Source: an uncultured Staphylococcaceae bacterium
GTDB taxonomy: Bacteria > Bacillota_I > Bacilli_A > RFN20 > CAG-826
Length of the DNA stretch: 42,828 nucleotides
NCBI GenBank assembly: GCA_964507285.1
Contig: CAZDPH010000002.1
Coordinates: 1 to 42,828, forward strand
Direction of reading: 5' to 3'
The notes beneath the pieces are model-generated. The model was given only the letters and a program-made list of their open reading frames with translations. It ran no database searches and was not told where the DNA came from. Positions 5,747 through 27,533 of this stretch are shown one piece after another; position 1 is the stretch's first letter; the number at the start of each line of letters is the position of its first letter. The translations under genes were made by a program, and so were the position numbers.

Positions 5747-6829
5747 TTATTTTCCTTCCCTTAATGTTTCTGAATAAAGCATGATAAATGGAGCACATCC
5801 TTTAACTTCATTTTCACTTATTTTTTCACTATAGTAATAATCTCTTGTACCATTTCTCTTTTCATTATCAAGTCCTGCAACTTGACAAATTCCACCTAAA
5901 GAATAATGGTTAGATGAATCTATTTTAAGATATTTTTTACAAATATTATTAAACATAGTGTTCCCTAATATTTTATAACCATCATCAATTAAATGTAATC
6001 TATTTGCTTTAATTAATGAATATGCCATCATAGCACTTCCACTTGTTTCTAAATAATTGCCTTTATCTTCTTTATGATCAATAACTTGATAAAGCATTGT
6101 ATATTCTTTATCTAAGTAAGGAATTAATCCATCAATCATCTCTTTATACATTTTTAAAAGCTCAATACTTGCATAATGGTCTTTACCCAATATTTCAATG
6201 ATATCAACAAGAGCCATCATACACCATCCACAAGCTCTACTCCATGAGTTTTCACTTTTGCCATCTTCTTTATTAGCCCATTGCATAATTTTTTGTTCAT
6301 CGTATGCATGAACATATAAATGACGTTTTTCATCATAGAGATATTTTCTAACATTACTAAATTGAGATAATGTATCTTCGATTACTTTATCGTTACCTCT
6401 TTTTAAACCTTCAATAATATAAAAAGGTTGCGCCATATATAATCCATCCATCCAAACTTGATATGGATATCTAGCTTTATGAAAGAAATTTCCACATTTA
6501 CAGCGAGGTTGTTCTTCTAATTGAGAATAAAATATATCAATTGCTTTTTTGAATTTTTCCTTATGTGTAATTTCATATGCCCAAGGAAGAACAAATGCAG
6601 CTTGGCAATCATCAGTAGAATAATCACTTTTTGGATATCCTAAAGCATTTCCTTCTTCATCAATAAATTTATCTAAATAATTTAATATAAAATCTTTATA
6701 ATAATCATTTTTAGTAGCGTTATACATATCGAGACTAGCTTTTAATAAAATACCATCTTCATAACACCATCTTTTTGCCTTATAAGGGACAAATTCATCA
6801 AAATATTGTTTAACAAATTCTTCTACCAT
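5747..6829 (-). CDS. Unsaturated rhamnogalacturonyl/galacturonyl hydrolase (GH105, YteR/YesR-like)
   Basis: RWCYEDGILLKA, DDCQAAF, VWMDGLYMAQPFY, CGWCMMAL resemble the GH105 (alpha/alpha)6 barrel. Start moved to MVEEF (ATG 6829) with AAAGGAG 8 nt upstream. This removes the overlap with the GntR ORF that the 6901 start would create. Confidence 0.8.
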   Translation of the reverse strand: MVEEFVKQYFDEFVPYKAKRWCYEDGILLKASLDMYNATKNDYYKDFILNYLDKFIDEEGNALGYPKSDYSTDDCQAAFVLPWAYEITHKEKFKKAIDIFYSQLEEQPRCKCGNFFHKARYPYQVWMDGLYMAQPFYIIEGLKRGNDKVIEDTLSQFSNVRKYLYDEKRHLYVHAYDEQKIMQWANKEDGKSENSWSRACGWCMMALVDIIEILGKDHYASIELLKMYKEMIDGLIPYLDKEYTMLYQVIDHKEDKGNYLETSGSAMMAYSLIKANRLHLIDDGYKILGNTMFNNICKKYLKIDSSNHYSLGGICQVAGLDNEKRNGTRDYYYSEKISENEVKGCAPFIMLYSETLREGK

Positions 6830-6842
6830 TTTATTCTCCTTT

Positions 6843-7493
6843 TTATTTAAAGTAATTAGGATATTTCTTTTTAACATTATCCATTCCTTCAAAACCAACA
6901 TTTAAATGTTCTTCAAATAATGATATTGCTTTTTTTACATCGTTATTTATTAATGAATTTAATAATTCCTTATGATAATTTAAAATAATTTTTAAATCAT
7001 CATCTCTTCTTAAATTTGACATAATTCTAAATCTATTAAGAGGAATTAATAAGTTATTAGCATATTCCCAAACTTCTTTTTTATTTGCAATTTCAAATAA
7101 AGTTTTATGAAATTCATTATCATTTTCGTATAATTTTCTAGATTTATCAATAGATTCATCTAATTTAATTATCTCTTCTTGGTTTTTTAATATTTCATTT
7201 AATAAAGATATTTTTTCATTATTAATGTTACCTACAATTTCATAATAAACCTTTTCTTCAATTGCTATTCTAATTGCTAAAGCATTAGAAATGTCTTTAG
7301 TATCAATTTTAGTAACAAAAGTGCCTTTTTTAGGTTTAACTTCTAATAATCCATCTTTTACTAATTGAATTATTGCACTTCTTACTGGAGTTCTAGATAA
7401 ACAAAATCGATTAACTAGTTCTTCTTCAGTAATTTTTGTACCTGGAATTATTTTACAATTTATTATTTCATTTAATAATGCTTCATAAATCAT
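6843..7493 (-). CDS. GntR-family transcriptional regulator with FadR-type C-terminal (FCD) domain; ExuR/UxuR-like by context
   Basis: 216 aa. Winged-HTH EEELVNRFCLSRTPVRSAIIQLVKDGLLEVKPKKGTFV followed by an all-helical roughly 140 aa domain. Embedded in the hexuronate locus. Confidence 0.85.
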   Translation of the reverse strand: MIYEALLNEIINCKIIPGTKITEEELVNRFCLSRTPVRSAIIQLVKDGLLEVKPKKGTFVTKIDTKDISNALAIRIAIEEKVYYEIVGNINNEKISLLNEILKNQEEIIKLDESIDKSRKLYENDNEFHKTLFEIANKKEVWEYANNLLIPLNRFRIMSNLRRDDDLKIILNYHKELLNSLINNDVKKAISLFEEHLNVGFEGMDNVKKKYPNYFK

Positions 7494-8077
7494 AATAATT
7501 CCCCTAAATTATTTTCTTCATATAAATAAATTAAAAATCTAGTTAAAAGTATATTTTTACCATTTTTAAGATTAATTCCACTTAATTCAGAGAATCTACT
7601 AATTCGATAATTTATAGTATTGCGATGAGTAAATAAATATAAGCTTGTATAATGAACAGATTCTTCAAAATCAATATATACTTTAGCAGTTTCAAATATA
7701 TATTTATCAACTTTAGAAAAAACATCTTTAACAAAATCTAAATTAATATCATTATTTTTATATTGTTGAAGTAATAATTCATATAAAGATAAATGACCTG
7801 ATTCATTAGATTTTAATACTAATTTCAAAGAATCTTTATAAAAAGGGGTTTCTACCAATAATAATTGATTTAAATTCAAATCATTCTTAATTGTTTTAAT
7901 AGAAAGACATATTTTTATAAAATCTTCTTTTTCAAGAGAACTTACTTTTATTAATCCGTCTTGAATTTTAGTCAAAGTAAAATCTTTATTAATAATTAAA
8001 AACATATATTTTTTCAATATTTCTAAATTATCGTATGTTTTATCAATTATTAAATAAGATTTTACTAAATTATTCAT
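7490..8077 (-). CDS. Short PucR/CdaR-type HTH protein (unrecognised N-domain plus C-terminal HTH)
   Basis: 195 aa. The C-terminus LFTHRNTINYRISRFSELSGINLKNGKNILLTRFLIY matches the PucR C-terminal HTH signature (H-RNT-x-YR-x4-E-x-G). ATGA overlap with the GntR gene and 8-nt overlap with the GH28 gene. Confidence 0.6.
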   Translation of the reverse strand: MNNLVKSYLIIDKTYDNLEILKKYMFLIINKDFTLTKIQDGLIKVSSLEKEDFIKICLSIKTIKNDLNLNQLLLVETPFYKDSLKLVLKSNESGHLSLYELLLQQYKNNDINLDFVKDVFSKVDKYIFETAKVYIDFEESVHYTSLYLFTHRNTINYRISRFSELSGINLKNGKNILLTRFLIYLYEENNLGELL

Positions 8078-9593
8078 CTTTAACCTTCTTTACATCGTGA
8101 GCTACTACTCTTTCACCATTAATTCCTTTTAAAGAAACATTTTTTAAACATAAAGTGTCAACATTATATGCTACAAATCCTTGTTTAGAACAAGTTTCTG
8201 CAAATGACATCATTGCAGGTTTCCCTTCTCCAGCATTAGGATTAAATTCAAAAGAAGAATCTATAATATTAACTTCTTTAATGAATTTTTCAGGTAACCC
8301 ATAAAAATATCCAGCAGCATATTCACAATTTTTTGCTTCAATATTAGAAAAAGTAAACTTACCTAAATAAGGTGTTCTATTATCAACTGGTAATTTTTCT
8401 TTTGTATAAACGTACTCAGTTTTACCATCAGGATCGCAGAAATAAAACATATTCATTGTAATAGGAGTTAAAACACCATCCATTTTAATATTATCAAATT
8501 CAACATTATCAATTTGACAAATATCTCCTCTTCCTCTTCTAACTTTAATTCTTAGCCCTCTATCAGTATGATCAAAGAAACATCTATCACATTTCATATT
8601 AGATAATCCACATGAAATTTCACTTCCTAAAACAACTGCGCCATGTCCATATTGCATCCAACAATTTCTAATTACAATATTTTCGCTCTTTTTATTATGC
8701 TTTCTTCCAAGCTCAACTTTCCCAGATTTAATTGCAATACAATCATCTCCAACAGAAAAATGTACACCAATAATTTCACAATTCTTAACAAATTGAGGAT
8801 CAATTCCATCTGTATTTGGACTATCTTTAGGGTTTTCAATATACATATCATAAACGCCTAGATCGTTTACGAAATAAGGATGAATTGTCCATGAAGGAGA
8901 ATTTTTTATACTTATTCCTTGTAAATTGATTTTTTCACTATTGTTAATAAAAATTAAATGTGGTCTAACATAAGGTAAATTTTTAACATTAATCCACCAA
9001 GGTCCTAAATTACCTCTTCCATCAATTATTCCTTCACCTACAATTGAAGTATTTTTACAATCTATTAAATTAATAATTGAAAGCATCATTGGTGAAGCAA
9101 TGCCTTCCCAAATTCCTCTTTCTTTAAACTCGCCATCAATAAATTCATTAGCAGGTATATATTCATAATCTTTTGGATTAGTATTTCCTAAAATCATTGC
9201 ACCTTTTTTTAAATATACTGTTAAATCACTTTTGAATTTTAAACTTGTAATAAAATATGTCCCTTCTTCAAAAACAAATAAAGCATCTTTTTTGCAAGAA
9301 TCAATTAACTTTTGAAGTTCTTCAGTAACATTGACTTCACCATTATTACAAATTCCCTTTGTAGTAACAACTTCACTTACTTTTTTTGTTTTAAAAGAAT
9401 AACTTTTTTCATTTACATTAATTTGATATTCAGTATCTGGTTCCAAATTAAAAACGGAAAAGCAATTAGTTTTATTGTTGCTAATTACTTCTTTTCCGTT
9501 TATATAGACATTAAAAGGTTTTGGAGCATAATAAACATTATTATTTTCTAATTCAAATGTAGCGCTTACAGGTGATATAAATAAAATTTTCAT
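8070..9593 (-). CDS. GH28 exo-polygalacturonase-like glycoside hydrolase with N-terminal FN3-like domain, no signal peptide
   Basis: 507 aa. GH28 motifs NTDGIDP, GDDCIAIKSG, GHGAVVLGSE, RGLRIK. The roughly 75 aa N-terminal beta-sandwich-like segment is as in exo-acting GH28 enzymes. Confidence 0.9.
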   Translation of the reverse strand: MKILFISPVSATFELENNNVYYAPKPFNVYINGKEVISNNKTNCFSVFNLEPDTEYQINVNEKSYSFKTKKVSEVVTTKGICNNGEVNVTEELQKLIDSCKKDALFVFEEGTYFITSLKFKSDLTVYLKKGAMILGNTNPKDYEYIPANEFIDGEFKERGIWEGIASPMMLSIINLIDCKNTSIVGEGIIDGRGNLGPWWINVKNLPYVRPHLIFINNSEKINLQGISIKNSPSWTIHPYFVNDLGVYDMYIENPKDSPNTDGIDPQFVKNCEIIGVHFSVGDDCIAIKSGKVELGRKHNKKSENIVIRNCWMQYGHGAVVLGSEISCGLSNMKCDRCFFDHTDRGLRIKVRRGRGDICQIDNVEFDNIKMDGVLTPITMNMFYFCDPDGKTEYVYTKEKLPVDNRTPYLGKFTFSNIEAKNCEYAAGYFYGLPEKFIKEVNIIDSSFEFNPNAGEGKPAMMSFAETCSKQGFVAYNVDTLCLKNVSLKGINGERVVAHDVKKVKDE

Positions 9594-9596
9594 AAT

Positions 9597-10133
9597 TTAA
9601 CCTCTTTTCTTTTCTTTAATTTTAAAAATTATAATACGGATAACATACTTTATTAATAAAAGAAATTCATCTACTATTAAAGCGATTAAAGCCATTGATA
9701 ATGGTTCTTGGAACCACCAGTTAGTTGCAAATCCATTTTCATTTGGAAATAATGAAACAATCCAAATGCAAAGATAAGCAGTAGCAAAAAAAACAGCTAG
9801 TTGAAATAGAATATTAAATATAACAGAATAAATTTTTTTTGATTTATAAATAATATGATTTTCGTGCTCTCCTGGTTCAGTTTCCATTAATAAAAGTAGA
9901 TTGCCATACATAAAATCAAAAACAATTCCACCAATTAAGCCTCCAGCAATAGCTAAATTTTCTCCAGTTAAACTTAAGCCCATCGCTACAAAGAAAAATA
10001 AAGCTCCATAAAACCAATATTTTAAAAATATTGCTTTTACCCAATATGGTATTTTTTGGAAAAAGCTAGTTTTTTGATAACTAGCTATTTCCTCATCTTT
10101 TTCTATTTGTTCTTTGGTTTTATTTTTCTTCAT
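9597..10133 (-). CDS. Hypothetical polytopic membrane protein (about 4 TM), family not recognised
   Basis: 178 aa. Lys/Glu-rich N-terminus, then hydrophobic spans (YWFYGALFFFVAMGL, IAGGLIGGIVFDF, IFNILFQLAVFFATAYLCIWIV, MALIALIVDEFLLLI). 14-nt overlap with the upstream ORF and 3 nt from the GH28 start. Confidence 0.5.
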   Translation of the reverse strand: MKKNKTKEQIEKDEEIASYQKTSFFQKIPYWVKAIFLKYWFYGALFFFVAMGLSLTGENLAIAGGLIGGIVFDFMYGNLLLLMETEPGEHENHIIYKSKKIYSVIFNILFQLAVFFATAYLCIWIVSLFPNENGFATNWWFQEPLSMALIALIVDEFLLLIKYVIRIIIFKIKEKKRG

Positions 10134-10752
10134 TTTGCTTTACTTCAATAGGTTTAAATGTAATTTTCTTTAATAAATTTTGAACAAGTGGAGCTGTAGC
10201 AACAACAACGCCAGTAATAATTGAAAGAATTATATGAACTAAAAGTAATGTTTTAGTTTGTCTTGCGTAACTAACATAATTTTGAATAATTTGGCTACTT
10301 GGATCTTTGCTTAAAGAAATTAATTCATCTTCTAAGTTAATAGCGTTTGATTTATAAATAAATAATAATAAAAGAATATTAATACCCCATAAAACAAAGA
10401 AAATAATTAACATATGTAATGGTCTTTTCTTACCGAATTTTTTCATAGCATATTGTAAATATGCAACACAATATAAAATTGTAAATAAAGTAATTATAAA
10501 TAAGAAAATACAATTATAAGGCCAGAAAATACTAAACAAAGATTTCATTCCTTCTGACATAGATAAAACGATAGGATTTGCACTATTTACACTTGAAAAA
10601 TTAACATCAAGTCTAGAAAATGCAGGAGAAAAAATAAATAATGAACATAAGAATTGTAAACAACATACGAATACAAACATTAATGGGATTACATAATAAT
10701 TTCTTTTTAAAGAAATAGCTATTTTTCTCATTTTAAGTTTAAATTTATTCAT
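10120..10752 (-). CDS. Hypothetical polytopic membrane protein (about 4 TM), family not recognised
   Basis: 210 aa. Very strong SD (AGGAGGAGGGG) 4 nt upstream, immediately after the ABC ATPase stop. Hydrophobic spans and positively charged loops. Confidence 0.55.
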   Translation of the reverse strand: MNKFKLKMRKIAISLKRNYYVIPLMFVFVCCLQFLCSLFIFSPAFSRLDVNFSSVNSANPIVLSMSEGMKSLFSIFWPYNCIFLFIITLFTILYCVAYLQYAMKKFGKKRPLHMLIIFFVLWGINILLLLFIYKSNAINLEDELISLSKDPSSQIIQNYVSYARQTKTLLLVHIILSIITGVVVATAPLVQNLLKKITFKPIEVKQNEEK

Positions 10753-10763
10753 ATCCCCTCCTC

Positions 10764-11843
10764 CTATCTAATTCTATTTGTAGTTTCTTCATCAAAGAAA
10801 CAAATTAAATCTTGATTAAAACCAACTTTTAAGGTTTCGCCTGCTTTATTATCAAGCCACCCTGGAAGTTTTAATTTTAATTTTTGATCACCATTATGAC
10901 AAATAAATAATGTACTACTGCCAAGATGTTCAACTAAATCAATATCAAACGATAATTCATCACTTTGAATTGAATGTTCTGGTCTAATACCTAAGCAAAC
11001 TTTTTTCCCAAAATATCCATTTCTCTTTAATAAATCAGCTCTCTTTTCGTCTAATTTAAATTTAATATCGTCTTTAACAAACCATCCGTCTTCGCTAACT
11101 TCTCCATGAATGAAGTTCATTGGAGGATTTCCAATAAATGAAGCAACGAAAATATTATTTGGGTCAGAATAAACTTCAATTGGAGTACCAATTTGTTGAA
11201 CTTTACCCATACTCATAACAACAATTCTATCTGCTAAAGTTAAAGCTTCAATTTGATCGTGAGTAACATAAATCATTGTTGCATCTAACTTTTGATGTAA
11301 TAATTTAATTTCTCTTCTCATAGATACTCTTAATTTAGCATCTAAATTACTTAAAGGCTCATCAAATAAGAAAACTTTAGGATTTCTAACAATTGCTCTT
11401 CCTAAAGCAACTCTTTGTCTTTGTCCACCAGACAATTGTTTTGGTTTTTTATTCAATTGTTCGTTTAAACCTAAAATTTCACTAGCATGCATGACTTTTT
11501 CATGAATTTCTTCTTTTGGTGTTTTTCTTAATGTTAAAGAAAAAGCCATATTTTGATAAATTGTCATATGAGCATATAAAGCATAGTTTTGGAAAACCAT
11601 TGCCATATCTCTATCTTTACTTGCTAAGTTAGTAACATCTTTACCACCAACAAAAGCTCTACCAGCAGTAATATCTTCAAGTCCAGCAATCATTCTTAAT
11701 GTAGTAGATTTACCACATCCAGAAGGTCCAACAATAACAATAAATTCACCGTCTTTGATATCAATATCAAAGTCTTCAACTGCTAAGACTCCACCATTAG
11801 TGTTATAAACTTTTCTTAAGTGTTCTAATTTTAAATCTGCCAT
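10764..11843 (-). CDS. msmX: MsmX/MalK-type sugar ABC transporter ATP-binding protein
   Basis: 359 aa. Walker A GPSGCGKST, signature LSGGQRQRV, Walker B FLFDEPLSNLD, H-loop YVTHDQ, then a MalK-like C-terminal regulatory domain (GNPPMNF...). Confidence 0.9.
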   Translation of the reverse strand: MADLKLEHLRKVYNTNGGVLAVEDFDIDIKDGEFIVIVGPSGCGKSTTLRMIAGLEDITAGRAFVGGKDVTNLASKDRDMAMVFQNYALYAHMTIYQNMAFSLTLRKTPKEEIHEKVMHASEILGLNEQLNKKPKQLSGGQRQRVALGRAIVRNPKVFLFDEPLSNLDAKLRVSMRREIKLLHQKLDATMIYVTHDQIEALTLADRIVVMSMGKVQQIGTPIEVYSDPNNIFVASFIGNPPMNFIHGEVSEDGWFVKDDIKFKLDEKRADLLKRNGYFGKKVCLGIRPEHSIQSDELSFDIDLVEHLGSSTLFICHNGDQKLKLKLPGWLDNKAGETLKVGFNQDLICFFDEETTNRIR

Positions 11844-11845
11844 AA

Positions 11846-12673
11846 TTATTTACCACCATTTTCAATATTTTTTAAATGTTCAGTTAATCTCTTACTCTTT
11901 TGTAAACAAATAAGTCCAGCAGAAATTAATGAAATAGCACCACAAATTAATAAAGCAACGCACCAAACAAATTTAGAAGTCGTTAATCCAGTTACTGTTT
12001 CAGTATTTAGACTTTCAATATATACTAAATAATAACGTAATGGAATCCAAAAAATTCTTAATAATTCAACCACTCCAAGTCCAATTGCAAAATATCCACC
12101 TTTAACATTATATGTTTTTGTTCTTTCTGCAATTAAGAAAGCAGCAAGTAAAACTAAAATATTAATCAATAAATCTAATCCCAATTGAACATCTGGAGTA
12201 CAATTTTTATCTTTATAAATAATTAAAAACATTGCAACATTTAAACAAATAGCTAAAATGCATAACCAAAAAGATGAAGTATTATTTTTATAACGCATAA
12301 TATCACTATGAGTTTCATGTAATTCGCCTTCTAAATCTAACTTTAAATATTTAGCATTTAATTGTAAATTTTCAACTTTTATTAATAAAGAATTATATTT
12401 TTCACTTATTTTAGAAGCTTTTTTTGTAACAATCTTAAATTTACTTTGGAAAACAGAATAATCTTTTTTAGCAACTTTATATTCTAAAGATTTAGGGTCT
12501 AAATTATTTAATTCATTATTTCTTGTTAATGCTTCTTCTTTATATTCAGAAAGTTCAGCTTGAGTATCTTCAAATTTAACTTTTAATTCTGGCAAAACAG
12601 CTTCAATATTTTTAATTGTTCTTTCAATTCTTTTTAATTTACCAGTAACTCTTATTCTTTTAAATTTATTCAT
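11846..12673 (-). CDS. Hypothetical membrane protein: roughly 125 aa N-terminal coiled-coil region plus about 4 TM
   Basis: 275 aa. The N-terminus is heptad-like and K/E/L-rich (KLKRIERTIKNIEAVLPELKVKFEDTQAELSEYKEE...), followed by FWLCILAICLNVAMFLII and three more hydrophobic spans. 2 nt from the ATPase start. Confidence 0.55.
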   Translation of the reverse strand: MNKFKRIRVTGKLKRIERTIKNIEAVLPELKVKFEDTQAELSEYKEEALTRNNELNNLDPKSLEYKVAKKDYSVFQSKFKIVTKKASKISEKYNSLLIKVENLQLNAKYLKLDLEGELHETHSDIMRYKNNTSSFWLCILAICLNVAMFLIIYKDKNCTPDVQLGLDLLINILVLLAAFLIAERTKTYNVKGGYFAIGLGVVELLRIFWIPLRYYLVYIESLNTETVTGLTTSKFVWCVALLICGAISLISAGLICLQKSKRLTEHLKNIENGGK

Positions 12674-13409
12674 CGATAACTACCTCGCTTAAATCCATTG
12701 AAGGATTTTTCTTTTGATATATAAATCTAAAGATACAATAAATAATTGCACCAAGAGAAAGTAAAACAATAATTCCGAATACTACAAATCCTAAAATAAA
12801 TACCCAACTAAATGTATTATAGGAGAAATATTCTTTAATTGCATCAACCCCTAATCCGTTTTGATAACTATAATAAGCATTAATAATATTATATGCAACG
12901 TTATTTTTACAATAATTACTCCATGAAATCAATTGATAAATTCCATATCCAGCAGTACCACATCCAAATAAGCCAGCAGCGCCTAATGTAATGTAATTAG
13001 ATATATAAAATACTTCTCTTTTTTGTGAATGGAATAAAAAACCAATAGCAGTAAGAATAATACCGATTAATCCAAAATTGAATAAAAAGTGATTAAAACC
13101 TTGAAGTTCACCACCAACCCCTGTGGTTTGATTTTGTTTACAGAAATTTACAAAATAAGATAAATTATAACCAACTAATTTGCCACTTCTATAAGCATAT
13201 GCAGCATCTGCGAAATCTGTGCTCCAAACTCCGTATGTTGTTGCATTACTTTTACTAAAAACAGCGTCAGTAATGTAAAAATCATAAAAAGGAGTCATAA
13301 ATATTAAACTATAGACAAATAAAAGTATCATAGAAAAAAAGATGGCAAAAACAATTGGTTTTTGTAATTTAAATATGAGACTTTTATTTGTATTTGGATT
13401 TTCCTTCAT
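12666..13409 (-). CDS. Hypothetical membrane protein (about 4 TM) with aromatic-rich extracytoplasmic loops
   Basis: 247 aa. TM1 IVFAIFFSMILLFVYSLIF, then a Y/W/F-rich roughly 65 aa loop, then three further TM spans. GGAGAG SD. 8-nt overlap with the next ORF. Confidence 0.55.
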   Translation of the reverse strand: MKENPNTNKSLIFKLQKPIVFAIFFSMILLFVYSLIFMTPFYDFYITDAVFSKSNATTYGVWSTDFADAAYAYRSGKLVGYNLSYFVNFCKQNQTTGVGGELQGFNHFLFNFGLIGIILTAIGFLFHSQKREVFYISNYITLGAAGLFGCGTAGYGIYQLISWSNYCKNNVAYNIINAYYSYQNGLGVDAIKEYFSYNTFSWVFILGFVVFGIIVLLSLGAIIYCIFRFIYQKKNPSMDLSEVVIDE

Positions 13410-13427
13410 AATTTTCTCTCCATAATT

Positions 13428-13450
13428 GTTAGGGCCAAAAAGGCCCTAAC
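13428..13450 (-). other. GC-rich intercistronic stem-loop after the binding-protein gene (no U-tract)
   Basis: gttagggcc-aaaaa-ggccctaac: perfect 9-bp stem, 19 nt after the SBP stop and just before the SD of the next gene. Followed by caattatgg on the minus strand, so not a canonical intrinsic terminator. Confidence 0.6.
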
Positions 13451-13468
13451 ATAATTTTAAATTTTTAA

Positions 13469-15661
13469 TTATTTCATTAAATCGTAAGCATCATTATAAA
13501 TAGTAACTGCTTTCTTTAAATTTAATGTTTCGTTGATATATGTTAAATATCCTGATTTAGTATATAAGACTTCACCAGTTGATGTTGTTCCACCAAATCC
13601 ATACATAACATATTTATTCCAAATATTATAATTTGAAGTAGATGAATTTGTATGAATATTTCCTAAACCAGCACTTTCTAATGTAGAAAGTTGTGTTGAT
13701 TCACCAGCAGATAAATTAAATGAGCTTGGTGTAATAGTGTAGAATCCATTGTCTGTGAAATCTAATTCAACATGTTTAAATGTTCCAACTTCTAATGCAT
13801 GAGCAACAATGTTACAACCATTAACTGCATTAGCATTTGTACATTGTACTTCAACACCATAATTCTTAACAGATCCAATATTTAAACCTGCACCAACATA
13901 TTTTCTGAAATAGTTAGTATAGTTATCTTTACCGATTGTTGTATCATGGAATTGAGCTAATGTTTCTTCTGATAATTGTGGGACACCATTAACAATTTCT
14001 GTATAATATCCTTCGCTTACTGGACCTGCTGTATATAAAGCTTGTCCTTCTTCAGAATAGAAGAAATCAAATAATTTTAATGCCTTAGCTAATTTAGCTT
14101 CATCTTTAACAATACTTGCATTAATACACCAGCCTTCTGTTTTAACACTTCTCCAGCTTTCTGTGAATTGCATCCACTTTGTTTTATATGTTCCAGTTTT
14201 TTCATCATATGATTCTTTCCATTCAGCAACAGCATTGATAATTGGTCTAAAATCATAACCTTCAACTGCTTTTGACCCAGCTTTATCATTCCAAGCACCT
14301 TGAGATTGAGAATAATCATATTCCATAAATCCACAATATGTTTTTCCTTCAACTGTAGCACCATTACCATTGAAAATTGCACTTGCGAATTTACCATCAG
14401 TAGCACCATTACTTGCTTTTGTTTCGAAATCTTTAGCAATCAAGCCTTCATCGTATAATTCATTTAAATATTCAAGTAATTCAGTTACATCTTCTTCACC
14501 TCTAGCATCATGAATCTTACCATCAGCACCAACATATAAGTAACCTTTTCTTGATTCTAATCCTTTAATGCCCCACATTTGAGCGCCCCATCTATAAAGA
14601 TCAGAAATTCTTGAGTTATTGTATTCTCTAGGAACAAATGCAATCATGTTTGTCTCTGCATTTCCTGTTAATGCTTTTGGTGAAGCTTTAACAATTCTCA
14701 TTAAAGCAATCATTTCATCTGCATCATAAGAAGCATCAACACCTAAGAATAAATCAGATTTAGTAGCATATTGTGATCCATATCTATCACTAATATATTG
14801 TCTAAATTGAGCAACTAATGATTTAGCATCTGCTTTTCCAGCATCAATTAATTCATTTTGTAATTCAATAATGTTTTTATCTGTTGATTTCTTTGTAATA
14901 GTTTTTGTACCATCACTTTCCATTGATTCAGGAACAGAAACTTCATAATTTGTTTTACCCATTCCTTTGTAACTTGATTTAGTAACAAGACCAGTATTTG
15001 TATCCCAATCAACATTTTCTTCATCTAAGATTTTTCTAACAAAATCAGCTCTTACTAAAGTATATTTTTCAACATCATCAAAGCCATCAAAATATGGAGC
15101 ATAATAAATTGCACTCTTACTTGTATCTTTATAAGATGTTGATTCGATAGAAACTTTAACAATTGGATTTGCTTCCAAGAATGCTTTGAAATTTGGAAGA
15201 TAATCCATATATTCATTTAAATCTAAAATTGTTCCTGAAGATGTTCCATATGATGAAATATCTGTAACGTTACCAACAGCAATATCAGCAAATTGATTTG
15301 TTAACCAGTTATTTTTGAAATAATCAGTTGCTTTTCCACTTGAATCAGTAACATCATTAATTGTGAAATCTAATTGATCAGAAACAGCTTTCCAAACAGG
15401 TTTTAAATCACCTTGTTTAATTTTTGTTCCAGCTGGAGTTGAGTAGTCAACACTTTCATTAAAAGTTAAACCAGTTGATTTATCATAATTAACTGACATT
15501 GAAAGTGTACAATGTTCATCTGGTAATGGATCAACAGGATCGACTGGATCAACAGGATCGACTGGATCAACAGGATCTACAGTTGAACCTCCTCCACATG
15601 CAGTTAGTACTAAGCCTAATAATCCTGCGCTTAATACACTTAAAAATCTTTTATTTTTCAT
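13469..15661 (-). CDS. Lipoprotein, extracellular solute-binding protein of the LplA/YtcQ-type (CUT1) family, unusually long
   Basis: 730 aa. Signal peptide plus lipobox LVLTAC-GGG, a (DPV)6 linker, then an SBP-like body. Sits directly downstream of the two permease genes. Confidence 0.8.
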   Translation of the reverse strand: MKNKRFLSVLSAGLLGLVLTACGGGSTVDPVDPVDPVDPVDPVDPLPDEHCTLSMSVNYDKSTGLTFNESVDYSTPAGTKIKQGDLKPVWKAVSDQLDFTINDVTDSSGKATDYFKNNWLTNQFADIAVGNVTDISSYGTSSGTILDLNEYMDYLPNFKAFLEANPIVKVSIESTSYKDTSKSAIYYAPYFDGFDDVEKYTLVRADFVRKILDEENVDWDTNTGLVTKSSYKGMGKTNYEVSVPESMESDGTKTITKKSTDKNIIELQNELIDAGKADAKSLVAQFRQYISDRYGSQYATKSDLFLGVDASYDADEMIALMRIVKASPKALTGNAETNMIAFVPREYNNSRISDLYRWGAQMWGIKGLESRKGYLYVGADGKIHDARGEEDVTELLEYLNELYDEGLIAKDFETKASNGATDGKFASAIFNGNGATVEGKTYCGFMEYDYSQSQGAWNDKAGSKAVEGYDFRPIINAVAEWKESYDEKTGTYKTKWMQFTESWRSVKTEGWCINASIVKDEAKLAKALKLFDFFYSEEGQALYTAGPVSEGYYTEIVNGVPQLSEETLAQFHDTTIGKDNYTNYFRKYVGAGLNIGSVKNYGVEVQCTNANAVNGCNIVAHALEVGTFKHVELDFTDNGFYTITPSSFNLSAGESTQLSTLESAGLGNIHTNSSTSNYNIWNKYVMYGFGGTTSTGEVLYTKSGYLTYINETLNLKKAVTIYNDAYDLMK
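15528..15581 (-). repeat. Tandem 9-bp repeat x6 (GGATCRACW; also readable as 18-bp x3) encoding the (DPV)6 linker
   Basis: ggatcaaca ggatcgact ggatcaaca ggatcgact ggatcaaca ggatctaca read directly from the sequence. In frame within the SBP lipoprotein gene just after the lipobox Cys. Confidence 0.95.
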
Positions 15662-15727: not shown

Positions 15728-16612
15728 CTATTCCTTAACGCCACCTAAATTAACACCAGCAGCAAAATATTTTTGAATAAATGGATAAATAATAATGATA
15801 GGTATAATTGCAGCAACAATCATACAATAAAATAACGATGTCATTGAGAAATTACCAAAATCTGGACGTGAATCTAATGAGTTCATTTGATCTAAGAAGT
15901 TTTTAATATAGACTTGTAAAGGTTGTTGTAATTCATCAGAGACAACTTGAGCTGCCCAGAAATAACCATTCCATCTAGAAATACCATAGAATAAACCAAC
16001 AGTAGCAATAGTAGCTTTACTCATAGGAATATAAACTTTATTACAAATTTGAGTTTCAGTAGCTCCATCAACAATAGCAGCTTCTTCAACTTCCTTAGGA
16101 ACACCTGCAAAACCATTTCTTAAAAGAATAACATTGTAAGCATTTAACCCCATTGCAATAACAACTAACCATTTATCATCAATAATTCCTATTGCGTGGA
16201 AAATATCTTTAGTATTATCATAGTTTAATTTTGTAGCAAATAAACCTGCCGAGAACCACATTGTGAATACAAGTAAGAAATTTAATACTCTATTAAATGG
16301 CATTCTCTTTTTACTTAATGCATAACCACCATAAATAGAAACAACCATTGCGAATATTGTACCTAAAGCAGTCAAGAATAATGTATTTGAATAAGAAATC
16401 CAGAATGTTTTTTGTTGGAATGTATAAATAAATGCATCAAATTGGAAAGCATTTGGAAATAAAATTAAACTTCCGGCTTCCATTTGTTCCTTTCCAGCTA
16501 TCGCAGCACAAATTGAATAAACGAAAGGATATAAACAAAATAATGCAAATATAGTTAAGAAGGTATAAGCTAAAATTTTAAATATAATTTCTGATGCGTC
16601 TAAACGTTTCAT
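15728..16612 (-). CDS. ABC sugar transporter permease (LplC/YtcP-like, BPD_transp_1)
   Basis: 294 aa, 6 TM. EAA-loop region EEAAIVDGATETQICNKVYIPMSK. Confidence 0.9.
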   Translation of the reverse strand: MKRLDASEIIFKILAYTFLTIFALFCLYPFVYSICAAIAGKEQMEAGSLILFPNAFQFDAFIYTFQQKTFWISYSNTLFLTALGTIFAMVVSIYGGYALSKKRMPFNRVLNFLLVFTMWFSAGLFATKLNYDNTKDIFHAIGIIDDKWLVVIAMGLNAYNVILLRNGFAGVPKEVEEAAIVDGATETQICNKVYIPMSKATIATVGLFYGISRWNGYFWAAQVVSDELQQPLQVYIKNFLDQMNSLDSRPDFGNFSMTSLFYCMIVAAIIPIIIIYPFIQKYFAAGVNLGGVKE

Positions 16613-16630: not shown

Positions 16631-17647
16631 TTAATATAAAGATGTATCGCTAATCTTACGAGCTATCATATTACTACCAATAACAAGTAACATTGCAATA
16701 ATTGCATTAAATAAATCAGCACTAGCAGCAATAGCTTTTGATAAAACGTTAATTGCGCCATCTGATGTAGCCATACCAGCATTTCTCATGACATAAGTTG
16801 AAACGATATCTGCTGTTTCATAAATACTATTATTATATAAGAGGTAAACTTTTTCATAACCAACAGTAAATAATTTACCAATTTCAAGAATTAACATAAT
16901 AGTTAAAGTTGAACCAATTCCTGGGAATGTAACATATCTAATTTGAGCTAATTTACTTGCTCCATCCATTCTAGCAGCTTCATAGCTTGTAGGAGAAATA
17001 GATAAAATAGCAGCAAAATAAACAATTGAACCATAACCTGCAGCTTCCCAAATACCTGAAACTTGATATACAGCTCTAAAGTATTGAGGATCTTGTAATA
17101 ATTTAGCACCTTCAGGAATTAAGTGAATTGTAGTTAAGAATTGAGTTAAAACACCACCATTATAAGAACTTGTTTGAGGAGCAACTAATAATTGAACAAG
17201 TGTAGTAACAACAACTAATGAGACAAATTTAGGAAGATATGAGAAAATTTGAACAATACTTCTATAAATTTGATTTTTAACTTCACTAAATAATAAAGCT
17301 AAGATAATAGGAAATGGGAATCCAAATAACAATCCATAGAAAGCTAACATAAATGTATTTCTAAATGCTCTCCAGAATAATGGGTCGGTCATAATAGCTT
17401 TAAATCCAGCTAAACCAACGAAATTACTACCCATAATACCTAAACCAGTATCAAAATCTTTAAATGCAACAGTTAAACCATACATTGGTAAATATCTCCA
17501 GAAGATAAATACTAAGACAAGTGGCAAAAGCATTACATATAAACGCCAATCTTTTAAGACACGTTTACCAACAAATTTCCAATAATTTTTTTCGTAATAG
17601 AGTTGGACACGTTTTCTTTCAAATTCAGTTTTATTTTTTTCTTCCAT
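16631..17647 (-). CDS. ABC sugar transporter permease (LplB/YteP-like)
   Basis: EAA loop YEAARMDGASKLAQIRYVTFPGI. Start moved to MEEKNK (ATG 17647) with AAAGGAATAGG upstream. This removes the overlap produced by the 17677 start. Confidence 0.9.
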   Translation of the reverse strand: MEEKNKTEFERKRVQLYYEKNYWKFVGKRVLKDWRLYVMLLPLVLVFIFWRYLPMYGLTVAFKDFDTGLGIMGSNFVGLAGFKAIMTDPLFWRAFRNTFMLAFYGLLFGFPFPIILALLFSEVKNQIYRSIVQIFSYLPKFVSLVVVTTLVQLLVAPQTSSYNGGVLTQFLTTIHLIPEGAKLLQDPQYFRAVYQVSGIWEAAGYGSIVYFAAILSISPTSYEAARMDGASKLAQIRYVTFPGIGSTLTIMLILEIGKLFTVGYEKVYLLYNNSIYETADIVSTYVMRNAGMATSDGAINVLSKAIAASADLFNAIIAMLLVIGSNMIARKISDTSLY

Positions 17648-17651
17648 AAAC

Positions 17652-18416
17652 CTATTCCTTTTTATCTTTATTCTCATTATCTAAATGAGATTTATATAAG
17701 TCATCCAATTCCTTTAACTCTCTTGCAGTTAATTCACCACCATCAAGTAAATTTGAATTATCAATTTGTCCAAATTCTGTGAAGGGTTTGTCACTATTGA
17801 AATTTGGAGATTCTTGATATTCTTTTAAATGACCTAATTTATTTCTTTCTTGAACATATTTAATATATTCTTTGCTTTCAACAATAAGTTGAGATTTTTT
17901 ATTATTAGCAATAAGCAAAATTATAATTGATATTACTAAACTCATACTTTCTAAGACACATTCAACTCTTAAATTATTAATAAATGTATCAAGAAATGTT
18001 GAATAATTGAACAAGCCAAGAATGAAACATCTTGTTAGAATTACAAAACCATATGAAATTATCAAATATGGAACAAAAACATAATTCTTTTTTAGTTTTT
18101 TTCTACCTATTAAGTATTGAAATATCAAAACTGGAATAATTAATGATATTGCTCCACCTATATAGGCAACATATTGAGAAAGTTCTGAAGACTTCCCTGC
18201 AATACATGCTGCAAGAGCTCCTCCTATTCCAACAATTATTCCCATAATTCCATTTCTATAAATACAAATTAAGGATAAAATTACCGAATAAGATAAAAAA
18301 ATTATTCTATACTCACCTAAAACGGTAGTAGTCGCAAAATAATTTAATAATTCAAATATAACAGCTAGGAAAGTAAAAACACATAAATCGAGAAATTTAT
18401 ATTTTCCTAAACTCAT
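17652..18416 (-). CDS. Hypothetical polytopic membrane protein (5-6 TM) with roughly 75 aa acidic cytoplasmic tail; first gene of the importer operon
   Basis: 254 aa. The hydrophobic core is faintly reminiscent of ECF S-components (not demonstrable by eye). The tail is ...ELTARELKELDDLYKSHLDNENKDKKE. Confidence 0.55.
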   Translation of the reverse strand: MSLGKYKFLDLCVFTFLAVIFELLNYFATTTVLGEYRIIFLSYSVILSLICIYRNGIMGIIVGIGGALAACIAGKSSELSQYVAYIGGAISLIIPVLIFQYLIGRKKLKKNYVFVPYLIISYGFVILTRCFILGLFNYSTFLDTFINNLRVECVLESMSLVISIIILLIANNKKSQLIVESKEYIKYVQERNKLGHLKEYQESPNFNSDKPFTEFGQIDNSNLLDGGELTARELKELDDLYKSHLDNENKDKKE

Positions 18417-18544: not shown

Positions 18545-19633
18545 CTATTTCTTATACTTTTCTTCCATTAATTGAATTAAAGAATCATCATCAAAATAGT
18601 TAATTTTCATACAATCTTTTAATTCTTTTAAATTCTTAGAAGCAATACTTTTAGCGTATTTTGTGCCTTCTTTTAAAGATTCATAGACATAAGGAATATT
18701 ATTTTCTAATTCATGACGTTTAATTCTAATAGGTTCTAAAAAATCATTTAACACATTTTCTAAGAAACGTTTGCATTTAACATCTCCTAAACCACCTTTT
18801 CTATAATGAGTTTTTAATTCTTCTAAATTATTATATTCAGGCCAATATTTTTTAAACATTTCGTCATTACAAAAAGCATCTAAATAAGTAAATACAGCGT
18901 TATTTTCAGTAGATCCTGGATCTTCTATTTTTAAATGATTTGGATCTGTAAACATAGACATAACTTTTTTATGAAGTTCTTCTTTTGTATCGCTTAAATA
19001 TATACAATTACCTAAAGATTTTGACATTTTAGCTTTCCCATCAGTACCAGGAAGTCTTCTTGAATTTAAATTATCTGGAATTAATGCTTTAGGTTCAATT
19101 AAATTCCCATTATATATAGAATTAAATTTTCTAACTATCTCACGAGTTTGTTCAATCATTGGAAGTTGATCTTCTCCTACTGGAACAATATTTGCTTTAA
19201 ATGCCGTAATATCTGCAGCTTGAGAAATTGGATAAGTTAAAAACCCAGTAGGAATTGAATCTCCAAATGCTCTTAATTTTAATTCATTTTTAACAGTAGG
19301 ATTTCTTTCTAATGTAGATAATGTTACTAAATTTAAATAATAGAAAGTAAATTCAGTTAATTCAGATACTTCTGATTGAATAAAAATGTGACATTTTTTA
19401 GGATCTAATCCACAAGACATATAATCTAAAGCTACTTCTAAAATATTTTCTCTAATTTTAGAAGGATTATCATAATTATCTGTTAAAGCTTGAGCATCTG
19501 CAATCATAATAAACATATCATCATAATCACCAGTATTTTGAATTTCTACTCTTCTTTTTAAACTTCCTATATAATGACCTATATGTAATTTTCCTGTAGG
19601 TCTATCTCCGGTTAAAATAATTTTCTTTTCCAT
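18545..19633 (-). CDS. trpS: Tryptophan--tRNA ligase
   Basis: 362 aa. HIGH motif GKLHIGHY, KMSKS motif present verbatim, and the TrpRS-typical GEDQ. Confidence 0.95.
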   Translation of the reverse strand: MEKKIILTGDRPTGKLHIGHYIGSLKRRVEIQNTGDYDDMFIMIADAQALTDNYDNPSKIRENILEVALDYMSCGLDPKKCHIFIQSEVSELTEFTFYYLNLVTLSTLERNPTVKNELKLRAFGDSIPTGFLTYPISQAADITAFKANIVPVGEDQLPMIEQTREIVRKFNSIYNGNLIEPKALIPDNLNSRRLPGTDGKAKMSKSLGNCIYLSDTKEELHKKVMSMFTDPNHLKIEDPGSTENNAVFTYLDAFCNDEMFKKYWPEYNNLEELKTHYRKGGLGDVKCKRFLENVLNDFLEPIRIKRHELENNIPYVYESLKEGTKYAKSIASKNLKELKDCMKINYFDDDSLIQLMEEKYKK

Positions 19634-26984: not shown

Positions 26985-27533
26985 TTAAATACAATACTTA
27001 TCATTACAAATATATTCAATATCAAAATTATCTTGAAACTTATAAATATAATAATAATCAGTTTTAAAATTATAATTATTCATAAAATCTCTATAAATTT
27101 CATGATATGATTTTACCTCATTTAAAGATAATAATTTATTTTCATAAGCTTCTTTTAAAGTATAAGAATGATTATTAATGAAAACTCTTCCTAATGCTAA
27201 AGATCTTCTTACTTTATAATTAAAATTATACTCTTCTATTTGTTCTTCATATTTATTATCTAAAAATATTTCTTTTTTATCTTTAGTGCCATATTCAAAA
27301 GTTAATACAGGATAAATTCCATTTATTTTATTAAAATAACCAGTTAGAGATATATAATGATTATTTAAATCAGTAACATTAAATTCATCTTTTAAATATA
27401 TTTTTGAATATTCTTTTAATTTTGAAACAGTTAAATCATCAATAATTATTTTATTATTAATATCATTACAACTAGTTAATAATAAAATAGGAATAAATGA
27501 AATAATAATTCTTCTAATTCTTTTTATAATCAT
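26985..27533 (-). CDS. Small lipoprotein, unknown family (paralogue of 27514..28059)
   Basis: 182 aa. Signal peptide plus lipobox ILLLTSC. Shares with its neighbour the blocks I-E-E-Y-N-F-N-Y / I-G-N-Y-E-F-N-W and L-K-E-A-Y-E / L-S-K-A-Y-E at equivalent positions. Confidence 0.6.
   Translation of the reverse strand: MIIKRIRRIIISFIPILLLTSCNDINNKIIIDDLTVSKLKEYSKIYLKDEFNVTDLNNHYISLTGYFNKINGIYPVLTFEYGTKDKKEIFLDNKYEEQIEEYNFNYKVRRSLALGRVFINNHSYTLKEAYENKLLSLNEVKSYHEIYRDFMNNYNFKTDYYYIYKFQDNFDIEYICNDKYCI

Follow-up and report, generated by a model that had tools for sequence, protein, structure and literature searches.

The closest described relatives of the locus reported here are ABC importers with few parts. 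The alginate (Alg) importer of Sphingomonas sp. A1 (AlgM1M2SS-AlgQ1/AlgQ2; PDB 4TQU, 4XIG) and the glycosaminoglycan-disaccharide importer Smon0120-0123 of Streptobacillus moniliformis, to which we take the solute-binding protein (SBP) chains 5GUB/5GX8 to belong, are each built from one SBP, a pair of permeases and a single ATPase that acts as a homodimer. We know of no extra membrane subunits, second ATPase or tethered enzymes in either. CUT1-type importers are also found in pectin/rhamnogalacturonan loci, namely the oligogalacturonide importer TogMNAB in Dickeya and YesOPQ and LplABC/YtcPQ in Bacillus subtilis, and these loci also hold cytoplasmic GH28/GH105 and Uxa/Kdu enzymes. In MalFGK2, the C-terminal regulatory (OB/TOBE) domain of MalK is the docking site for EIIAGlc and MalT. 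Here we describe a predicted pectin-fragment importer of uncultured gut/rumen bacteria whose genes stand together with those of five membrane proteins that belong to no known family. We found no earlier description of this system.

Results

Organization of the locus

The locus lies in the window, by which we mean the whole stretch of 42,828 nucleotides that was analysed. Its features are:

18542-18514, minus strand: terminator-like hairpin after the upstream trpS (consensus scan)
18472-18444, minus strand: promoter-like site ahead of mp254 (consensus scan)
17652-18416, minus strand: mp254, first gene of the unit (ORF call)
16631-17677, minus strand: permease A (Pfam PF00528; BPD_transp_1, LplB/UgpA-like, EAA loop)
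15728-16612, minus strand: permease B (Pfam and NCBIfam; BPD_transp_1, MalG/UgpE-like, EAA loop)
13469-15661, minus strand: lipoprotein SBP, 730 aa (lipobox LTAC; family profile match)
13427-13451, no strand: GC-rich hairpin with a 10 bp stem, SBP/mp247 intergenic region
12666-13409, minus strand: mp247 (ORF call)
11846-12673, minus strand: mp275 (ORF call)
10764-11843, minus strand: ATPase1 (ORF; Pfam and NCBIfam matches)
10120-10752, minus strand: mp210 (ORF call)
9597-10133, minus strand: mp178 (ORF call)
8070-9593, minus strand: GH28 polygalacturonase (Pfam PF00295)
7490-8077, minus strand: HTH_30 gene, downstream in the importer unit (Pfam)
6843-7493, minus strand: GntR/FCD regulator, downstream in the importer unit (Pfam)
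5747-6901, minus strand: GH88-family hydrolase, downstream in the importer unit (Pfam)
3664-3636: terminator closing the importer transcription unit (consensus scan)
22053-24593, minus strand: ATPase2-UxaB fusion (Pfam ABC_tran, OB_MalK, Mannitol_dh, Mannitol_dh_C)

The five accessory proteins (mp254, mp247, mp275, mp210 and mp178) are polytopic, and their genes are interleaved with those of a type I ABC importer. All ORFs in 9597-13409 lie on the minus strand where a preliminary description of this DNA had placed them. Its count of four membrane-protein genes is right for that interval, but mp254 at 17652-18416 raises the total to five. The coordinates also reproduce the gaps and overlaps that it listed: -8 nt for mp247/mp275, +2 and +11 nt around ATPase1, which is thus embedded among the accessory genes with gaps of 2-11 nt, -14 nt for mp210/mp178, and +3 nt for mp178/GH28, the GH28 gene starting 3 nt past the mp178 stop. 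Judged by this spacing, the accessory genes are co-transcribed and translationally coupled with the importer, in line with the co-expression that had been proposed.

The promoter-like site before mp254 and the terminator at 3664-3636 mark the putative limits of the transcription unit, although terminator and promoter positions come from consensus scans only. The hairpin at 13427-13451 has no T-tract on the coding strand. The start of permease A is ambiguous: a start at the ATG at 17677 produces an overlap of 26 nt, and the public gene call of 338 aa implies an alternative start, which we computed as ~17647. The HTH_30, GntR/FCD and GH88-family genes recur in related loci.

The importer core and its two ATPases

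The two permeases match PF00528 (E 2.5e-12 and 2.1e-9) and carry one EAA-type loop each (EEAAIVDGA... and YEAARMDGA...). ATPase1 is of the MalK/UgpC type with an OB-fold C-terminal domain (ABC_tran, E 2e-32; OB_MalK, E 3e-14) and scores 464 bits against the NCBIfam UgpC subfamily NF008653, whose cut-off is 432 bits. With two EAA permeases, a MalK-type ATPase and an extracytoplasmic SBP, the importer belongs to the CUT1 class, and because the EAA loops and the canonical ATPase motifs are kept, the core is complete without extra proteins. ATPase2 is a second MalK-type ABC ATPase, fused in the window to a UxaB-like oxidoreductase of the mannitol-dehydrogenase family. The ATPase2-UxaB ORF is contiguous in the loci of the window's clade, among them L010, L011, L012 and L014. 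In other clades ATPase2 is stand-alone, as in L015, L016 and rumen loci; it is present in 29/33 loci. Both ATPases have OB-fold regulatory domains and canonical motifs.

The 730-aa SBP as a single sequence gave no Pfam and no PDB match, whereas its family profile (A10) matched AlgQ1/AlgQ2 (E 7e-25) and the chains 5gub/5gx8 (deposited under the title ‘Extracellular solute-binding protein family 1’, E 5e-15). Just two stretches of the profile match AlgQ-type proteins (~490-515 aa); the N-terminal, central and C-terminal regions of the SBP have no AlgQ-type match. The lipobox Cys is invariant in A10, making the SBP a lipoprotein in all clades. From its sequence, the protein is an AlgQ-like lipoprotein that probably binds uronate oligosaccharides. 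The original SBP call stands by family profile, but not by a Pfam match of the single sequence. The SBP's lack of a Pfam match, the second ATPase and the putative S-component-like fold of mp254 (see below) are points absent from the preliminary description.

Linkage of the accessory genes to the importer

Linkage was assessed in 81 gut/rumen metagenome loci with a GC content of 26-64%, and presence ratios count the loci with enough DNA to reach each gene. ATPase1 was present in 54/54, mp275 in 40/40, mp247 in 38/38, the SBP in 35/35, permease B in 30/30, permease A in 27/27 and mp254 in 12/12 loci. The gene order was shared by 12/12 genome loci, with accessory proteins down to 25-47% identity, as well as by the distant loci L017, L019 and L021, and it recurred in the longer loci among the 80 from rumen/gut metagenomes. 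Accessory genes without the permeases and SBP were never seen where the DNA allowed checking; the sub-block ATPase1-mp210-mp178-(GH)-ATPase2 recurs alone on L023, a contig whose upstream part is cut off. The module extends beyond the low-GC lineage to loci of 40-64% GC and is also found in a MAG named ‘Bacilli bacterium’ (protein on a ~2.08 Mb contig). Linkage to the transporter, whose absence from all related genomes would have spoken against the preliminary description, had no exception in related loci with enough DNA, and the same order recurs.

Five accessory proteins outside known families

None of the five accessory proteins gave a meaningful E-value match in Pfam or NCBIfam or a match to PDB sequences, and they are not paralogous to one another. 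Pfam returned no DUF624 match among the five proteins, 10 mp254 orthologues and 10 divergent relatives, and the Pfam/NCBIfam searches detected no signalling domain, be it kinase, PAS, HAMP or another. This agrees with the earlier impression that the proteins lack a DUF624 signature and lie outside known families; a membership in known housekeeping families, which would have spoken against the importer module proposed there, did not emerge from the curated families. Hydropathy gives four TM segments each for mp247, mp275, mp210 and mp178 and ~6 for mp254. The dN/dS of the five genes against three orthologous loci is 0.12-0.56, indicating purifying selection, and together with the conserved gene order this argues that the genes are real.

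For mp254, six TM helices and a conserved 80-residue cytoplasmic C-terminal tail are predicted. When its AF2 model (pLDDT 79) was compared with the PDB using Foldseek, the best ten matches were all ECF S-components, e.g. ThiT and RibU (prob 0.77-1.0, target-normalised TM 0.49-0.64, weak E 0.1-2); the alignments with ThiT and RibU span ~175-205 columns. The predicted fold may thus resemble that of an ECF S-component. S-component families in Pfam/NCBIfam matched neither mp254 nor 10 orthologues (E up to 1), nor two divergent relatives (E up to 0.1). The locus lacks an EcfT-like protein, and its two ATPases are of the MalK type. Conserved intramembrane polar or charged residues are E22, R54 and R129.

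mp247 has four TM helices, an acidic C-terminal tail and two outer loops that are aromatic-rich, as had been noticed (18% and 27% vs 12% across locus proteins). In the rumen clade the protein is ~196 aa and these loops are much shorter. Its TM2-TM3 cytoplasmic loop carries a conserved QKR..Y..N, and R131 in this loop is Arg in at least 90% of sequences. The conserved C-terminal tail overlaps the mp275 SD and start codon, so its conservation may be partly nucleotide-level. mp275 begins with a charged helical region (1-117), after which come a juxtamembrane motif that is conserved and a core of four TM helices; the coiled coil followed by four TM segments that was described earlier is present here, but the coiled coil is limited to this clade and absent elsewhere. 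Against three orthologous loci, dN/dS is 0.20-0.37 for mp247 and 0.44-0.56 for mp275. In both proteins, residues conserved at 90% or more include cytoplasmic TM2-TM3 loop residues, and many universally conserved residues sit in cytoplasmic loops or juxtamembrane positions. mp210 has four TM helices, the conserved motifs KRNYY..P and Y..G.KRP..M, and R110 in the TM2-TM3 loop, which is invariant within the low-GC clade. Its SD is as strong as had been stated (GGAGGAGGGG), and in related loci an ORF of ~190 aa occupies its position.

Fusion of mp178 to GH28

mp178, whose family comprises 333 clusters, is predicted to be a four-helix membrane bundle with cytoplasmic N and C termini. Its AF2 model (pLDDT 88) has no structural neighbour among PDB structures. 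D73, N107 and D155 are conserved within the membrane, and the N terminus, TM2-TM3 loop and C terminus are K/R-rich; the linker in the fusions is basic. Like mp275, mp178 has almost no external mass. Seventeen of the 81 loci end at mp178, and among the 64 informative ones the following gene is GH28 in 49, GH88 in 10 and ATPase2 in 4.

In at least five sequences (L015, L016, P0157, P0155 and P0165), mp178 and GH28 form an in-frame single ORF joined via the mp178 C terminus. These fusions occur in only one sub-lineage, other than the window's, and no accessory protein besides mp178 is fused to an enzyme. The catalytic motifs of the GH28 family are NTD, G/QDD, G/SHG and RIK. The window GH28, which has no signal peptide, retains them intact as NTD, GDD, GHG and RIK; all four are also kept in three other aligned stand-alone copies and in the fusion P0157, and all four are lost in the fusions L015, L016, P0155 and P0165. 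The motif-less GH28 domains of L015 and L016 are 81% identical with a dN/dS of 0.12. Since it is dead in 4/5 fusions yet still selected, the GH28 body has a non-catalytic membrane role. The fusions suggest a combined, hitherto undescribed uptake-and-digestion machine and lend direct support to an assembly scaffold, one of the options raised in the preliminary description.

Discussion

Our favoured reading, which we hold tentatively at a probability of roughly 0.4, is that the five proteins are dedicated accessory subunits of an AlgQ-type pectin-uronate importer and form a membrane platform that couples import to processing. The five proteins, two permeases and two MalK-type ATPases would make up this platform, which would anchor at the importer's inner mouth the cytoplasmic enzymes that act first in processing. 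Because the enzymes would be kept there, the imported chain could pass directly to hydrolysis and then to uronate catabolism, as a transport metabolon. Unfused mp178 would bind GH28 (or GH88) non-covalently; the conserved cytoplasmic loops between TM2 and TM3 of mp247, mp275 and mp210 would be their points of contact with the ATPases or permeases; and mp254, given its putative S-component-like fold, may bind a small ligand or be a further docking subunit. We infer a physical association of the accessory proteins with the permeases or ATPase1; the support for contact with permeases, ATPases or enzymes is indirect and comes from the mp178-GH28 and ATPase2-UxaB fusions and the strict synteny. Against a platform, the fusions are limited to one sub-lineage and to mp178, nothing links mp247, mp275 or mp210 to an enzyme, and in 4 loci ATPase2, not a hydrolase, follows mp178. 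The possible nucleotide-level component of mp247 tail conservation, from the overlap with the mp275 SD/start, also counts against it. Furthermore, mp178 D73/D155 and the transporter-like mp254 fold exceed the needs of a passive anchor and fit transport, and a second translocator would likewise require two ATPases in one CUT1 operon.

These last points bear on the main rival, which we consider unlikely: a second, ECF-like translocation unit parallel to the SBP-dependent importer. mp254 would be its membrane-embedded, S-like substrate-binding subunit, the four 4-TM proteins would stand in for the EcfT scaffold and give the coupling loops, and one or both MalK-type ATPases would power it, with a small pectin-derived solute or counter-ion as cargo. 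That only ECF S-components appear among the top ten matches of the mp254 model is consistent with such a unit, but the Foldseek E values are weak (0.1-2), no S-component sequence family matches and an EcfT homologue is absent from the locus. Two distinct ATPases are a constant feature, ATPase1 lying inside the accessory block; both, however, are MalK-type with OB domains, a class that to our knowledge occurs solely with EAA-loop permeases. The sub-block on the upstream-truncated L023 stands alone, whereas in every locus that could be checked the accessory genes came with the permeases and SBP. Conserved intramembrane residues in mp178 (D73, N107, D155) and mp254 (E22, R54, R129), and TM2-TM3 loops with mp247 R131 and mp210 R110 that by eye look like coupling loops, would also fit, yet the mp178-GH28 pseudoenzyme fusions would be left unexplained.

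An extracytoplasmic role is improbable; the fusions indicate the cytoplasmic side. In this reading the outer loops, above all those of mp247, would capture pectic oligosaccharides, or else would help to dock or place the unusually large SBP on the permeases in cells without a retaining wall. The aromatic content of the mp247 loops (18-27% vs 12% background), a 730-aa SBP with regions lacking an AlgQ-type match, its lipoprotein nature in all clades and the hairpin between its gene and mp247 are in favour; however, conservation is lowest in the outer loops, which are far shorter in the rumen clade, conserved mp247/mp275 residues are often cytoplasmic or juxtamembrane, and mp178 and mp275 are nearly without external mass. 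Least probable, with only a slim chance of being right, is a regulatory device in which sensing of transport or substrate by the membrane proteins would govern HTH_30 and GntR, or in which they would gate the ATPase regulatory domains. EIIAGlc and MalT, which act with MalK, are a precedent, both ATPases carry OB-fold regulatory domains, dead GH28 could serve as a ligand sensor, and HTH_30 and GntR/FCD follow GH28 in those low-GC and 44-51% GC loci that have public Pfam annotation. The rumen loci, which run mp178, GH28 and/or GH88, ATPase2, add no support. Five separate conserved membrane proteins go far beyond what known sensors of this kind need, and Pfam/NCBIfam detect in them no signalling domain of the kinase, PAS, HAMP or any other type.

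Like the Alg importer, the locus appears to encode an ABC importer of type I that takes up acidic uronate oligo- or polysaccharides, with an SBP family match (AlgQ1/AlgQ2, E 7e-25), two EAA permeases and a MalK-type ATPase; the SBP family also matches the 5GUB/5GX8 chains (E 5e-15). In contrast to the Alg and Smon0120-0123 proteins, the locus SBP is a lipoprotein and ~240 aa longer. B. subtilis also has small polytopic membrane proteins (DUF624 YesL/YesV) beside importer genes, but the locus proteins and their divergent relatives match neither DUF624 nor another Pfam family, and they represent not one family but five, in fixed order with an ATPase amid them. The predicted six-helix fold of mp254 may be like that of ECF S-components (ThiT, RibU, BioY), whereas the locus has no EcfT, ECF-type ATPases or S-component sequence match, and mp254 adds a conserved 80-residue cytoplasmic tail, its translation being coupled to that of a type I permease. 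As in MalFGK2, where partners dock at the C-terminal end of MalK, ATPase2 is joined to UxaB through that same end; here, however, the partner is a catabolic enzyme attached by gene fusion, and there are two ATPase paralogues.

Results

Layout of the operon and selection on its genes

The importer operon on the minus strand contains five genes for membrane proteins, named here mp254, mp247, mp275, mp210 and mp178 by their length in amino acids, interspersed with those for the importer itself.

Gene order of the importer operon, from mp254, first in minus-strand order, to GH28, the last of the genes listed
17652-18416, minus strand, mp254
16631-17677, minus strand, permease, following mp254
15728-16612, minus strand, permease
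13469-15661, minus strand, lipoprotein (SBP), 730 aa
12666-13409, minus strand, mp247
11846-12673, minus strand, mp275
10764-11843, minus strand, ABC ATPase (ATPase1)
10120-10752, minus strand, mp210
9597-10133, minus strand, mp178
8070-9593, minus strand, GH28

The preliminary description had reported unassigned membrane proteins in an oligogalacturonide importer operon. They do exist, although there are five and not the four it placed at 9597-13409, as mp254 lies beyond that interval. Its junction lengths were reproduced (-8, +2, +11, -14 and +3 nt along mp247/mp275/ATPase1/mp210/mp178/GH28), as was the very strong SD of mp210. Hydropathy indicates four TM segments each in mp247, mp275, mp210 and mp178 and about six in mp254. 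Consensus scans, which are indicative only, place a terminator-like hairpin 3' of the upstream trpS gene, a promoter-like site just before mp254 and the next minus-strand terminator at 3664-3636. The same scans, again only as an indication, found a perfect 10-bp GC-rich hairpin at 13427-13451, separating mp247 from the SBP gene. This hairpin lacks a T-tract on the coding strand and could determine how strongly the SBP is expressed relative to the membrane subunits.

The tryptophanyl-tRNA synthetase-like gene (tRNA-synt_1b, 18545-19633, minus strand) separates the uxaA/TIM-barrel genes from the importer operon here and likewise in the related loci L001, L002 and L005. The mp210/mp178 junction is a 14-nt overlap in the low-GC clade, whereas the high-GC loci L101, L084, L060 and L024 have a 57-96 nt spacer with a GC-rich hairpin (GGGAGGCC...GGCCTCCC) at this position.

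The five accessory genes are real and under selection. Measured against the orthologous loci L005, L007 and L012, dN/dS was 0.13-0.14 for mp254, 0.20-0.37 for mp247, 0.44-0.56 for mp275, 0.16-0.27 for mp210 and 0.12-0.25 for mp178, compared with 0.05-0.14 for the permeases and ATPase.

Importer core and surrounding pectin locus

Both permeases belong to BPD_transp_1 by their matches and have visible EAA loops, and ATPase1 is of the MalK/UgpC type with an OB domain (Pfam, NCBIfam). The SBP had no Pfam match and, as a single sequence, no PDB match, but a profile of 13 orthologues retrieved AlgQ1/AlgQ2 (E 7e-25) and the SBP chains 5GUB/5GX8 (E 5e-15), which we take to be the SBPs of a glycosaminoglycan-disaccharide importer. 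Around the importer are genes for polysaccharide processing (GH28, a GH88-family hydrolase, a pectinesterase and a GDSL esterase), for uronate catabolism (UxaC, UxaA, a UxaB-like domain, KdgK and KdgA) and for regulators (GntR, HTH_30). By these homologies the core is predicted to be a uronate-oligosaccharide importer within a complete pectin locus.

Directly behind the SBP lipobox, at residues about 27-46, is a run of VDP repeats (VDPVDPVDPVDPVDP) that varies among orthologues and resembles a flexible tether. In the ATP-synthase cluster, an ORF that is apparently the b subunit (40266-40874, minus strand) starts with a lipoprotein-type signal (LSLTSC), a feature known from Mollicutes; several further small proteins with a lipobox are encoded nearby (26985-28059). 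A 738-aa ORF (24750-26966, plus strand) combines a MatE (MATE efflux) membrane domain with a C-terminal BD-FAE esterase domain and is the third fusion of an enzyme with a membrane-transport protein or transporter ATPase in or beside the pectin locus.

Distribution and linkage

A word-indexed search of 5.8 billion proteins returned only 24 mp247 relatives. It led to 12 genome loci, in each of which the complete gene order is preserved up to the contig ends; at the greatest distance among them, the permeases and ATPase share about 70% identity and the accessory proteins 25-47%. An exhaustive profile search extended the mp178 family to 333 clusters at 50% identity, and its most distant members placed on contigs (L017, L019 and L021, 24-30% identity) again showed the same order; the short contig L023 reads ATPase1-mp210-mp178-GH88-ATPase2. 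Scanning metagenomes with the family alignment A9 yielded 80 further loci with GC contents of 40-64%, apparently mostly from rumen and gut, judging by contig names. We then counted linkage with family HMMs on stop-to-stop translations of 81 loci with distinct mp178 sequences.

Presence of importer and accessory genes (denominators are loci with enough DNA)
ATPase1, 54/54 loci
mp275, 40/40 loci
mp247, 38/38 loci
SBP, 35/35 loci
permease B, 30/30 loci
permease A, 27/27 loci
mp254, 12/12 loci

The claimed linkage to the transporter is thus conserved, with the expected genes in every related locus that has enough upstream DNA. This synteny excludes hitch-hiking housekeeping genes, and the loci of 40-64% GC weaken an explanation restricted to a wall-less, low-GC lineage. 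Organism names attached to the loci are limited to MAGs called 'Bacilli bacterium' or 'Bacillales bacterium', and a protein of one of these MAGs lies on a 2.08-Mb contig. Contigs with the low-GC locus (L006, L007, L008, L009 and L011) also sit in bins with unrelated taxon names (Bacteroidaceae, Phocaeicola dorei, Parabacteroides goldsteinii, Acutalibacteraceae and Slackia) and are probably mis-binned.

Fusions of mp178 to GH28 and a pseudoenzyme

In loci L015 (13076-15103) and L016 (11635-13647), mp178 and GH28 are encoded together in a single unbroken ORF (675 and 670 aa, respectively). Three more fusion clusters (P0157, P0155 and P0165) emerged from the exhaustive mp178 search, and all such fusions are confined to one sub-lineage. 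mp178 is rich in K/R at its N terminus, in the TM3-proximal part of the TM2-TM3 loop and at its C terminus, while its TM3-TM4 loop is acidic and lacks K/R; the fusion linker is basic. Because of this charge pattern, the established positive-inside rule predicts that the fused GH28 is on the cytoplasmic side. The lack of a signal peptide on stand-alone GH28 fits this placement.

All four GH28 catalytic motifs are gone in four of the five fused domains (L015, L016, P0155 and P0165) but are retained in P0157 and in every stand-alone copy examined. The dead domains of L015 and L016 are 81% identical, with a dN/dS of 0.12. Loss of the motifs under this degree of constraint marks a selected, membrane-anchored pseudoenzyme within a transporter operon, in which GH28 serves the membrane in some way besides catalysis. 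Seventeen of the 81 loci end just beyond mp178; in the 64 that are informative, the next gene is GH28 (49), GH88 (10), ATPase2 (4) or another gene (1).

A second ATPase

ATPase2 is a constant member of the locus, present in 29/33 loci with enough DNA. It is 45-55% identical to ATPase1, and both are MalK-type. In the window it is part of an 846-aa ORF (22053-24593, minus strand) in which a complete MalK-type ATPase (ABC_tran and OB_MalK) is fused to a UxaB-like oxidoreductase of the mannitol-dehydrogenase family. The two parts are also contiguous in L010, L011, L012 and L014, which belong to the window's clade, whereas ATPase2 stands alone in L015, L016 and rumen loci.

Family assignment and predicted structures

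The view that the membrane proteins have no assignable family was upheld. Pfam and NCBIfam gave nothing above noise for the window's five proteins, including no match to DUF624. Nothing significant came from Pfam for 10 mp254 orthologues or for 10 divergent relatives whose loci have about 50% and 62% GC, or from PDB profile searches with all five families. Weak matches to SLATT, Claudin, MASE9 and Piezo were all far below cut-off and were taken as noise. Paralogy among the five families was rejected, as the probability did not exceed about 2% in hhalign comparisons of their alignments (A1 with A3, A2 with A4, A5 with A2).

The AF2 model of mp178 is confident (pLDDT 88); it has short N-terminal helices followed by four long helices and no structural neighbour in the PDB. 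For the mp254 model (pLDDT 79), the top ten Foldseek hits were all ECF S-components (ThiT, RibU and others; probability 0.77-1.0, target-normalised TM 0.49-0.64, weak E-values of 0.1-2), which we treat as a likeness of predicted fold and not as membership.

The conserved residues of the accessory proteins point inward. Those kept in all clades include some in the TM2-TM3 loops that mp247 and mp275 expose to the cytoplasm, a motif of mp275 next to the membrane (juxtamembrane) and the intramembrane polar residues D73, N107 and D155 of mp178 and E22, R54 and R129 of mp254.

In the low-GC clade, mp247 has an acidic motif, 'ID(L/I)S(E/G)', at its C terminus; in the rumen clade the motif is on mp210, as read from mp210 C termini in metagenome loci among L024-L101 that have both mp247 and mp210. 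In the window it (12666-12710) overlaps the SD and ATG of mp275; because of this overlap we did not count it there as a shared docking peptide or use conservation of the mp247 tail as evidence. In the rumen clade it could be a genuine peptide motif, since a 57-96 nt spacer follows it in 4/7 rumen loci examined.

Discussion

The reading we consider most likely, with a probability of about 0.4, makes the five proteins accessory subunits of the importer, which would form a membrane platform for cytoplasmic pectin-processing enzymes. Such a platform would keep these enzymes at the importer's inner face, with GH28 or GH88 attached via mp178 and UxaB via ATPase2. The loci themselves show that the genes are inherited together and that the fusions and the pseudoenzyme exist, and they show the topology; for lineages without fusions we infer non-covalent contacts, as we do any role of mp247, mp275, mp210 and mp254.

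A more ambitious proposal, which we regard as doubtful, is an unprecedented ABC importer architecture in which a type I uronate-oligosaccharide importer in a permanent supercomplex would thread, hold and degrade long acidic chains during entry. Such a supercomplex would comprise one S-component-like subunit, four new subunits of four helices each, two MalK-type ATPases that differ from each other, and enzymes or pseudoenzymes tethered to the membrane (GH28 on mp178, UxaB on ATPase2). The main rival to a platform is a second, ECF-like translocation unit. The S-component-like fold of mp254, albeit with weak Foldseek E-values, the presence of two ATPases and the acidic residues conserved within the membrane are all consistent with it, but there is no EcfT homologue, both ATPases are of the MalK class and the accessory genes were never found without the permeases and SBP in loci with enough DNA, and we consider such a unit unlikely. 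Of two weaker readings, extracytoplasmic capture or SBP docking seems improbable and regulation very improbable.

A textbook type I ABC importer has four parts: an SBP, two permeases and an ATPase dimer. If five extra membrane subunits, two ATPases and tethered enzymes are a conserved arrangement, this four-part minimum would be incomplete for polymeric acidic substrates. The analysis also defines five protein families without annotation, identifies a selected, membrane-anchored GH28 pseudoenzyme, and offers a concrete hypothesis for dietary pectin use by small-genome, uncultured Bacilli of the gut and rumen. Many metagenomic pectin loci whose genes are currently 'hypothetical' would gain annotation.

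We found no prior description in the searchable literature (RFN20/RF39, GH28/oligogalacturonide, DUF624). For unexplained membrane proteins in loci of this kind, DUF624 is the only known precedent, and the proteins here do not match it. To our knowledge, comparable extra conserved membrane subunits, a second ATPase or tethered enzymes are absent from AlgM1M2SS-AlgQ, the 5GUB/5GX8-type importers, TogMNAB and the Bacillus importers. Among these systems, AlgM1M2SS-AlgQ and the importers with SBPs matching 5GUB/5GX8 are closest to the core described here, which fills the role of TogMNAB and the importers of Bacillus pectin loci.
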